Below, in pieces: positions 35,243 through 35,701 of a stretch of DNA of 64,000 nt; the first letter of the stretch is position 1, and each line of letters opens with the position of its first letter. The DNA lies in the NCBI RefSeq assembly GCF_000026545.1, contig NC_011601.1; one strand, 5' to 3'. The notes beneath the pieces were generated by a model, which saw only the letters and a list, made by a program, of their open reading frames with translations, was not told the DNA's origin and did no database searches. This DNA is from Escherichia coli O127:H6 str. E2348/69 (GTDB lineage: Bacteria > Pseudomonadota > Gammaproteobacteria > Enterobacterales > Enterobacteriaceae). The translations under genes and the position numbers were made by a program.

Positions 35243-35347
35243 GTCATTTTCTCCAGATTGCTTTTGCGCCCGGCGCGCATGCACTCTGGATCATTCTATT
35301 ACCCAATAAACCTTATATGAATCGTTTAGGTATTAATCAGTTGCTTT

Positions 35348-35364
35348 ATTACCTTACAGGTAAT
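35348..35364. promoter_or_regulatory. Phage operator-type palindrome ATTACC-N5-GGTAAT (site j)
   Basis: ATTACCTTACAGGTAAT between the divergent tailspike gene and the small plus-strand gene. Confidence 0.5.
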
Positions 35365-35440
35365 TTACATTTCATGCTGGATAGTCCTGATATCTTCTGC
35401 TACTGTATGTTTTATACAGTGATTGCATGGAGAAGAAGAG

Positions 35441-35701
35441 ATGCAACGGCAGTATCACCATCCGCTGGAAGAAGGATTTGAGGAAAGAATACACACGCCG
35501 GTAGGCGTTAGATCCCTGGTGGAGGAATCGCACCTGATGAAGTTGCTGCGGGAACTCGATAAAGATGGCTTCAATGTTGATGGGCCACTTGCTGAACTGG
35601 TTGCTCTTGTGAACTACGTCACAAGTTCTCAAATGACCATGCAGGATCTGCAAACTCATCTCGATTACTGTGCGGAACAGTTACGTAAGCAAACCACTTA
35701 A
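35441..35701 (+). CDS. Small acidic protein, candidate antirepressor or regulator
   Basis: ATG at 35441 with GGAGAAG ribosome-binding site; 86 aa; operator site and LexA-like dyad upstream. Confidence 0.55.
   Translation: MQRQYHHPLEEGFEERIHTPVGVRSLVEESHLMKLLRELDKDGFNVDGPLAELVALVNYVTSSQMTMQDLQTHLDYCAEQLRKQTT

Follow-up and report, generated by a model that had tools for sequence, protein, structure and literature searches.

We consider it likely that the 86-aa gene at positions 35441-35701 (plus strand) of the window, the whole 64,000-nucleotide stretch of contig NC_011601.1 of Escherichia coli O127:H6 str. E2348/69 that was analysed, is the antirepressor gene (ant) of an epsilon15-like prophage, and that its LexA box carries a derived insertion of one T that removes ant from SOS control in this copy. 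All sequence features of the SPC32H-type Ant-Rep family were found at the locus, with the exception of the spacing of the LexA box. The SPC32H-type Ant-Rep-LexA system is already characterised, so the locus is not a new candidate. What is new is only the operator insertion carried by one lineage of the reference strain of enteropathogenic E. coli (EPEC), and its interest is modest and mainly practical.

Identification of the antirepressor and its repressor

The 86-aa plus-strand open reading frame of the initial annotation was confirmed. It extends from the ATG at 35441 to the TAA at 35699-35701 (stop codon included in the coordinates) and is preceded by the ribosome-binding site GGAGAAG at 35429-35435 on the plus strand, which was assigned from the sequence and whose TGCATGGAGA block is kept in 11/11 aligned relatives. 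A 92-aa version of the protein beginning at a TTG was rejected, as the ATG at 35441 with its ribosome-binding site gives the exact length of the crystallised protein. Another open reading frame of 95 codons, antisense to ant (35372-35659, minus strand), is most likely spurious and has no annotated homologue in any relative.

Over its full length, the product is identical in 85 of 86 residues to the Ant protein of Salmonella phage SPC32H (PDB 5D50, chain E; E=2e-54), the single difference being the conservative substitution D29E. The homologous ORF is annotated as anti-repressor in SPC32H, SPC32N, 65FD and 66FD, the wording for SPC32H being "ant: anti-repressor protein". RefSeq lists it as "hypothetical protein" for E2348/69 and the majority of Uetakevirus records. 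No family could be assigned to Ant in either Pfam or NCBIfam, both of which were searched; it matches phrog_450 (unknown function), and there is a weak match to the C-terminal portion of an "anti-repressor" PHROG. At the DNA level, a region of 518 bp shows 93-95% identity with the Salmonella phages SPC32H, SPC32N, SPN1S and epsilon15, and 75-80% with phiV10, TL-2011b, Tyrion and other Uetakevirus phages.

The presumed target of Ant, the 198-aa prophage repressor Rep, is encoded at 60826-61422 on the plus strand, with clusters of operators on both flanks of its gene. Rep and its SPC32H counterpart share about 97% identity, and the match to the Rep chain of 5D50 includes 6 substitutions (E=5e-127). 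Only HTH_3-type Pfam matches were obtained for this protein, and Peptidase_S24 was absent in the same Pfam search, in agreement with the earlier statement that the repressor has no recognisable S24 domain.

The prophage is about 40 kb long, is epsilon15-like (Uetakevirus) and is sited between yfgI and guaA in E2348/69. It carries lysis, conversion, virion, replication, recombination and integrase genes and appears structurally complete; the window ends about 4 kb short of its integrase end. The early region is mosaic in phage comparisons. The ant gene is divergent from the tailspike gene (32555-35242, minus strand) and is flanked on its other side by an 824-aa virion/ejection-type gene (35902-38376, minus strand). 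Between ant and the 824-aa gene lie a small membrane ORF and a GC-rich hairpin (35713-35730, minus strand), which separates ant from the upstream late genes, has a T tract on the minus strand and corresponds to a rho-independent terminator in the epsilon15 annotation.

The order of tailspike, ant, small membrane ORF and 824-aa virion gene is the same in SPC32H, SPC32N and epsilon15. Shared with SPC32H are also the upstream Rep operator, the promoter and LexA-box sequence apart from the additional T, and the ribosome-binding site. The differences concern the host, which is Salmonella for SPC32H and E. coli O127:H6 here, as well as the C-terminus of the tailspike and the conversion genes. In epsilon15 (gp19) and the Uetakevirus phages phiV10, TL-2011b, Tyrion, BUCT554 and PAS61, a small homologous ORF occupies this position, together with the Rep operator and the TGCTGGATAG block, whereas the LexA box has an 8-bp spacer (N8) in all of them and the ORF is mostly called hypothetical protein.

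The location of the gene had earlier been taken to match the immI region of phage P22. P22 Ant is a large unrelated protein whose regulators are Mnt, Arc and an antisense RNA, and not LexA. It is true that the gene lies between the virion-internal/ejection genes and the tailspike, as the antirepressor gene does in P22, and that it has a Rep operator upstream. This likeness is limited to the map position: no homology to P22 Ant was found with Pfam or NCBIfam, which assign no family to the protein, the region 35243-35440 holds no further ORF and is too small for arc- or mnt-like ORFs, and an Rfam scan of 35100-36000 gave no match to sar RNA, only a chance miRNA match (E=0.97). Moreover, the protein is 99% identical to a different antirepressor that is defined both structurally and genetically. 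That ant belongs to a P22-type immI module (Mnt, Arc, sar), or is another accessory gene, e.g. for superinfection exclusion, is hence hardly credible, and the P22-type identity in particular is effectively refuted by the 5D50 match together with the Pfam and Rfam negatives. The assignment as an SPC32H-type ant gene is retained in the following.

The same regulatory logic, in which a small protein held by LexA inactivates a non-cleavable repressor, is found in coliphage 186 (Tum) and in Gifsy-1/Gifsy-3, whose GfoA/GfhA are LexA-controlled antirepressors (Lemire et al. 2011, PMC3121763). Tum and GfoA/GfhA share no sequence family with Ant, and they differ from it in phage type, map position and binding to the repressor.

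Rep operators and the probable ant promoter

The operator recorded upstream of ant in the initial annotation was recovered at 35348-35364, where ATTACCTTACAGGTAAT forms a perfect ATTACC-N5-GGTAAT palindrome, and every relative examined has it at the corresponding place. The homologous 17-mer is annotated as a repressor binding site in the epsilon15 GenBank record, with an IHF site adjoining; the putative homologue of this IHF site is located at 35327-35349 on the plus strand (coordinates transferred from AY150271.2). When up to two mismatches were allowed, the operator motif gave 18 matches in the window, seven of them perfect, against 1.69 expected, and none of 100 shuffles reached 18. Further Rep operators in the window are located at 52594, 55942, 58370, 58432, 60739, 60756, 61480, 61542 and 61618. 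They are spread over the prophage, some being near the portal and terminase genes, and are not confined to the surroundings of rep. Because of this scattering, Rep seems to silence several transcription units directly.

At the strong early promoter by rep (TTGACA-17-GATTAT, 61515-61543), operators are situated upstream of the -35 element, over the -10 element and +1, and about 70 nt downstream. The Rep operator upstream of ant is clear of the core promoter, about 49-65 nt 5' of the inferred start. This intergenic operator may serve a candidate tailspike promoter on the minus strand, TTCATA-17-TAGAAT at 35321-35293, divergent from ant, which was obtained by a consensus scan with 9/12 matches, a score that shuffles give at a similar chance rate.

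No plus-strand promoter for ant was called by the simple consensus scan. In the alignment of eleven relatives, five conserved blocks are separated by variable DNA: the operator, TGCTGGATAG, TACTGT, ATACAGT and TGCATGGAGA. TGGATA (35378-35383, plus strand) lies within the invariant TGCTGGATAG block, and TACTGT (35401-35406, plus strand), likewise conserved across the relatives, is at the same time the left arm of the LexA box. The distance between the two is always 17 nt, while the spacer sequence varies among the Salmonella, E. coli and Enterobacter relatives. Because of this constant distance across a variable spacer, we infer that TGGATA and TACTGT are the -35 and -10 hexamers of the ant promoter (Pant), in which case the LexA box would cover the -10 element and the start site.

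Sequence and spacing of the LexA box

The dyad with a 9-bp spacer that had been described upstream of ant is indeed present at 35401-35420 (TACTGTATGTTTTATACAGT), with CTGT at 35403-35406 and ACAG at 35416-35419. It is the homologue of the LexA (SOS) box of SPC32H and epsilon15, which reads TACTGTATG-TTT-ATACAGT and has the canonical arrangement CTGT-N8-ACAG. The window has TTTT and otherwise aligns base for base, i.e. a one-nucleotide insertion in the T run 35410-35413 turns the box into CTGT-N9-ACAG, and the CTG at 35403-35405 and the CAG at 35417-35419 are 11 bp apart and not 10. A bare CTGT-N9-ACAG is not significant alone, with one occurrence in the window against 0.98 expected and at least one in 66 of 100 shuffles; the dyad is significant because it is homologous to the SPC32H/epsilon15 LexA box. 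CTGT-N8-ACAG is absent from the whole window.

In the best 20-nt register, the window box with four T residues (4T) matches the LexA consensus in 10/20 positions with one core arm, compared with 17/20 and two core arms for SPC32H. In the virulent SPC32N, a C to A exchange turns ACAG into AAAG within the right arm of the box aligned to 35401-35420, and 16/20 positions and one core arm match. The window box is therefore a poorer fit to the consensus than that of SPC32N. LexA operators are described in a passage of PMC5999292, which cites the LexA-DNA structure, as 20-bp imperfect palindromes with two CTG motifs exactly 10 bp apart. The window box, with 11 bp, departs from this E. coli spacing rule and, with the N9 produced by the additional T, also from the canonical CTGT-N8-ACAG of the SPC32H-type system. 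Because its CTG motifs are 11 bp apart where the rule is 10, the box is predicted to have lost LexA binding, and LexA repression of ant is predicted to be lost in this lineage. The N9 spacing reads as a lesion in this copy; it is neither a feature of the family nor evidence against homology. The initial annotation had proposed an SOS-controlled antirepressor. As to the antirepressor of a non-cleavable repressor, this is upheld by the 85/86 identity to SPC32H Ant, but SOS control of this copy is doubtful, because the one-nucleotide insertion that makes the N9 box is predicted to abolish LexA binding.

A real insertion could also leave LexA able to repress ant sufficiently, through a strained dimer or through strong half-site binding at the -10 element, and SOS control would then be kept. 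The insertion leaves the two 7-bp arms, ACTGTAT and ATACAGT, unaltered, the left one still lies over the inferred -10 element, and the lysogen is viable. In B-DNA, one added base corresponds to a rotation of about 34 degrees, by which the two arms would be turned relative to each other. An N9 box was seen in no relative and in no related metagenome DNA, and the PMC5999292 passage demands CTG motifs at a distance of exactly 10 bp. Retained control by LexA is thus judged improbable, and loss of LexA repression remains the preferred reading of the box.

Distribution of the insertion

The spacing was compared in an alignment of eleven sequences with ten compared relatives. All ten relatives have N8, including CP059840.2, which comes from a different E2348/69 stock, and the window alone has N9. 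The N8 spacing is found in SPC32H, epsilon15, phiV10, TL-2011b, Tyrion, BUCT554 and PAS61 despite differing spacer bases (variants ATGTTTAT, GTATTTAT, ATAAGCAT, ATATTTAT, ACATATAT and ATAAATAT, all N8), and such constancy over changing bases is best taken as a signature of selection on the spacing. The identical Ant protein was found on six contigs, five of which have TTT, the sixth being the window's own record. Over 6.3 kb, ENA ERZ761559 (TTT) differs from the window only by the T and one SNP, and over 3.6 kb Logan SRR1554980 (TTT) differs only by the T.

Among 5,426 complete E. coli genomes, TTT is present in CP059840.2 (E2348/69), ET846 and MARGA_3, and TTTT in LT903847.1 and LT827011.1 only. 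LT903847.1 represents strain EPEC1, which was engineered from "E2348/69 variety 2", and LT827011.1 is the parent of EPEC1. The window is exactly identical to NZ_LT903847.1 over the 6.3 kb compared and to NZ_LT827011.1 over 40 kb. Its host genes show 100% identity with E. coli O127:H6 E2348/69 records. In IMG/VR, the 4T 20-mer occurs on one contig, UViG_643348548, which has the same sequence as the window and presumably represents the 2009 reference genome, and the 19-mer with three T residues (3T) occurs on at least 120 contigs, 13 of which are epsilon15-like ant loci. A search of 241 million metagenome records for the 4T 20-mer gave two matches, both in unrelated DNA, and none on related contigs. 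Because TTTT is confined to the Sanger/Imperial records and TTT is found elsewhere, the extra T appears to be a derived state that arose within the Sanger/Imperial lineage of E2348/69 and is private to it.

The largest other group among the at least 120 IMG/VR contigs with the exact 19-nt 3T box (TACTGTATGTTTATACAGT) carries it in front of Tum-like ORFs of 146 aa with a DinI-like C-terminus; these loci include L019, L022, L034 and L035. The Tum-like ORF of locus L019 matches the DinI model, and no DinI-like C-terminal domain was found in Ant with NCBIfam.

Authenticity of the insertion

The additional T is very likely real. No difference separates the LT and CP059840.2 assemblies in the adjacent 50,000 bp, and over 58 kb around the prophage only four differences were found between them: SNP 18189 (host intergenic, upp-purM), SNP 33828 in the tailspike gene, the T, and one 24-bp unit of a repeat array. 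Because of this identity and the small number of differences, both assemblies appear to be homopolymer-accurate and a random homopolymer error is unlikely. Position 33828 is G in the 4T records and A in CP059840.2 and ENA ERZ761559, which alters the accession of the tailspike protein (WP_000218894.1 versus WP_024218303.1). Since the SNP and the T allele go together in both CP059840.2 and ERZ761559, the latter being the only other 3T assembly that covers 33828, two true lineages are indicated. Between the E2348/69 assemblies, three differences fall in the approximately 40 kb of prophage and one in about 67 kb of host DNA, an enrichment that is not significant with four events (binomial p ~0.15).

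If the extra T were instead a sequencing error or a carry-over from the reference, the strain would truly have the canonical N8 box and an ordinary SPC32H-type SOS switch. The differing site is a homopolymer, every other relative has TTT, and an intact box would predict a stable lysogen. The LT genomes were sequenced by MiSeq at more than 100x and assembled both de novo and reference-guided on NC_011601 (PMC5685641). Since LT903847.1 and LT827011.1 come from this one study and are partly reference-guided, the independence of the three 4T records may be incomplete. However, 4T is present both in the 2009-era IMG isolate genome UViG_643348548, presumably capillary-sequenced, and in the >100x MiSeq records, the LT and CP059840.2 assemblies agree over the neighbouring 50 kb, and 4T goes with G and 3T with A at tailspike position 33828. 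An artefact is accordingly considered unlikely, and the insertion is treated as a true mutation below.

Proposed switch and stability of the lysogen

The Ant-Rep-LexA circuit of SPC32H was reportedly solved genetically in 2013 by Kim and Ryu (J Virol) and structurally in 2016 by Kim et al. (PNAS; 5D50 and 5D4Z). In these two studies, the SOS response is said to leave Rep uncleaved, host LexA reportedly represses ant through a box that overlaps the promoter, and a tetrameric Ant is said to associate with two Rep dimers and thereby to break up the DNA-bound Rep tetramer. SPC32N, two nucleotides away from SPC32H, is reportedly a LexA-box mutant in the 2013 work, with constitutive Ant production and a lytic cycle.

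The mechanism proposed for the present prophage is carried over from this near-identical system. Rep, a non-self-cleaving repressor with two HTH motifs, would silence the prophage from the ATTACC-N5-GGTAAT operators, while ant would be transcribed from the weak Pant (inferred TGGATA-17-TACTGT), the -10 element and start site of which would lie within the host LexA box. Upon DNA damage, LexA would be removed and Ant produced, and the tetrameric Ant would bind two Rep dimers and strip Rep from the DNA; an Ant tetramer that binds two dimeric Reps is described in a passage of PMC9638917. In this copy, the additional T in the box would deprive LexA of specific binding and free ant from SOS control. 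The promoter hexamers, the loss of LexA binding and the phenotype of this copy are what we infer from its sequence.

A stable and widely used laboratory lysogen with a complete-looking prophage is hard to reconcile with a constitutive functional antirepressor, because the analogous box mutation of SPC32N reportedly sends that phage into the lytic cycle. The comparison of assemblies revealed no compensating change in rep or ant between the two E2348/69 lineages, and no useful reports on prophage induction in E2348/69 were found by literature search. Several ways of tolerating the lesion are possible. The output of a weak Pant could be out-titrated by Rep, or Rep could act additionally at the upstream operator. 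The prophage could also be unable to kill for causes common to both lineages, e.g. three small pseudogenes in the early region, or it could be crippled through a missing unit of the iteron array. That the additional T abolishes LexA repression in the reference lineage and the apparently complete prophage nevertheless stays lysogenic is a tentative proposal, which we hold to be rather doubtful.

Other features of the prophage and its surroundings

A replication-initiator gene with HTH_36 and DnaT domains is located at 59267-60073 on the minus strand, followed by a lambda-P-like gene. Within the initiator gene, iteron-like units with the core CCCAAAAACGG form a perfect tandem array, which is probably the phage origin, as in lambda O. 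In CP059840.2 (locus L134, 12448-12607), the array consists of a 36-bp unit repeated 2.4 times followed by a 24-bp unit repeated 3.5 times. The array in the window has one 24-bp unit fewer (indel at ~59741), and the initiator protein has 268 aa here versus 276 aa. Both versions of the protein are present in one ENA assembly series, mostly on short contigs that are broken at the repeat, which makes the copy number unreliable.

Two proteins are encoded at 30351-32525, between the lysis cassette and the tailspike: one of 335 aa, whose N-terminus resembles a signal peptide, and an Acyl_transf_3 protein of 357 aa. They likely form an O-antigen modification (lysogenic conversion) module, unlike that of SPC32H, in which an oac gene occupies the same place. 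A pseudogenic tRNA-Gly is annotated by RefSeq between the portal and terminase genes at ~53056-53168 (L131, 37687-37799); no tRNA genes were found in the window by ARAGORN.

The same prophage also encodes an MT-A70 methyltransferase and a RecT/PD-(D/E)XK recombination pair. Its gene for a PerC-family regulator is situated just past the right end of the window (NZ_LT903847.1, 2012758-2013057; L133, 6759-7058), and PerC-like regulators bear on the control of EPEC virulence genes. About 15 kb past the integrase end of the prophage, outside the window, an integrase-bounded host island near der (L159, 39373-41155) includes a nucleotidyltransferase along with a gene whose annotation reads anti-phage Hailong effector HalA.

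Significance

Nothing categorical is added to the biology of phage switches by these results, and their value is practical. The name ant can be transferred to the records that now read "hypothetical protein", for which no Pfam or NCBIfam family exists. In the lineage of the prototype EPEC genome, the SOS operator of a prophage antirepressor bears a lesion private to this lineage, and another stock of the strain is without it. If this lesion alters spontaneous or antibiotic-triggered induction, stocks of a much-used pathogen model differ in phage release. Should LexA repression be lost and lysogeny be stable nonetheless, an undescribed second lock on the switch would be implied, for which the upstream Rep operator acting on Pant, an Ant threshold set by excess Rep and the linked loss of the 24-bp iteron unit are candidates; laboratories working with different E2348/69 stocks would then hold strains that are unlike in prophage induction. 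The natural spacing mutant and its isogenic wild type offer a clean reagent for studying how strictly LexA depends on operator spacing and whether Pant is a site of Rep action as well.
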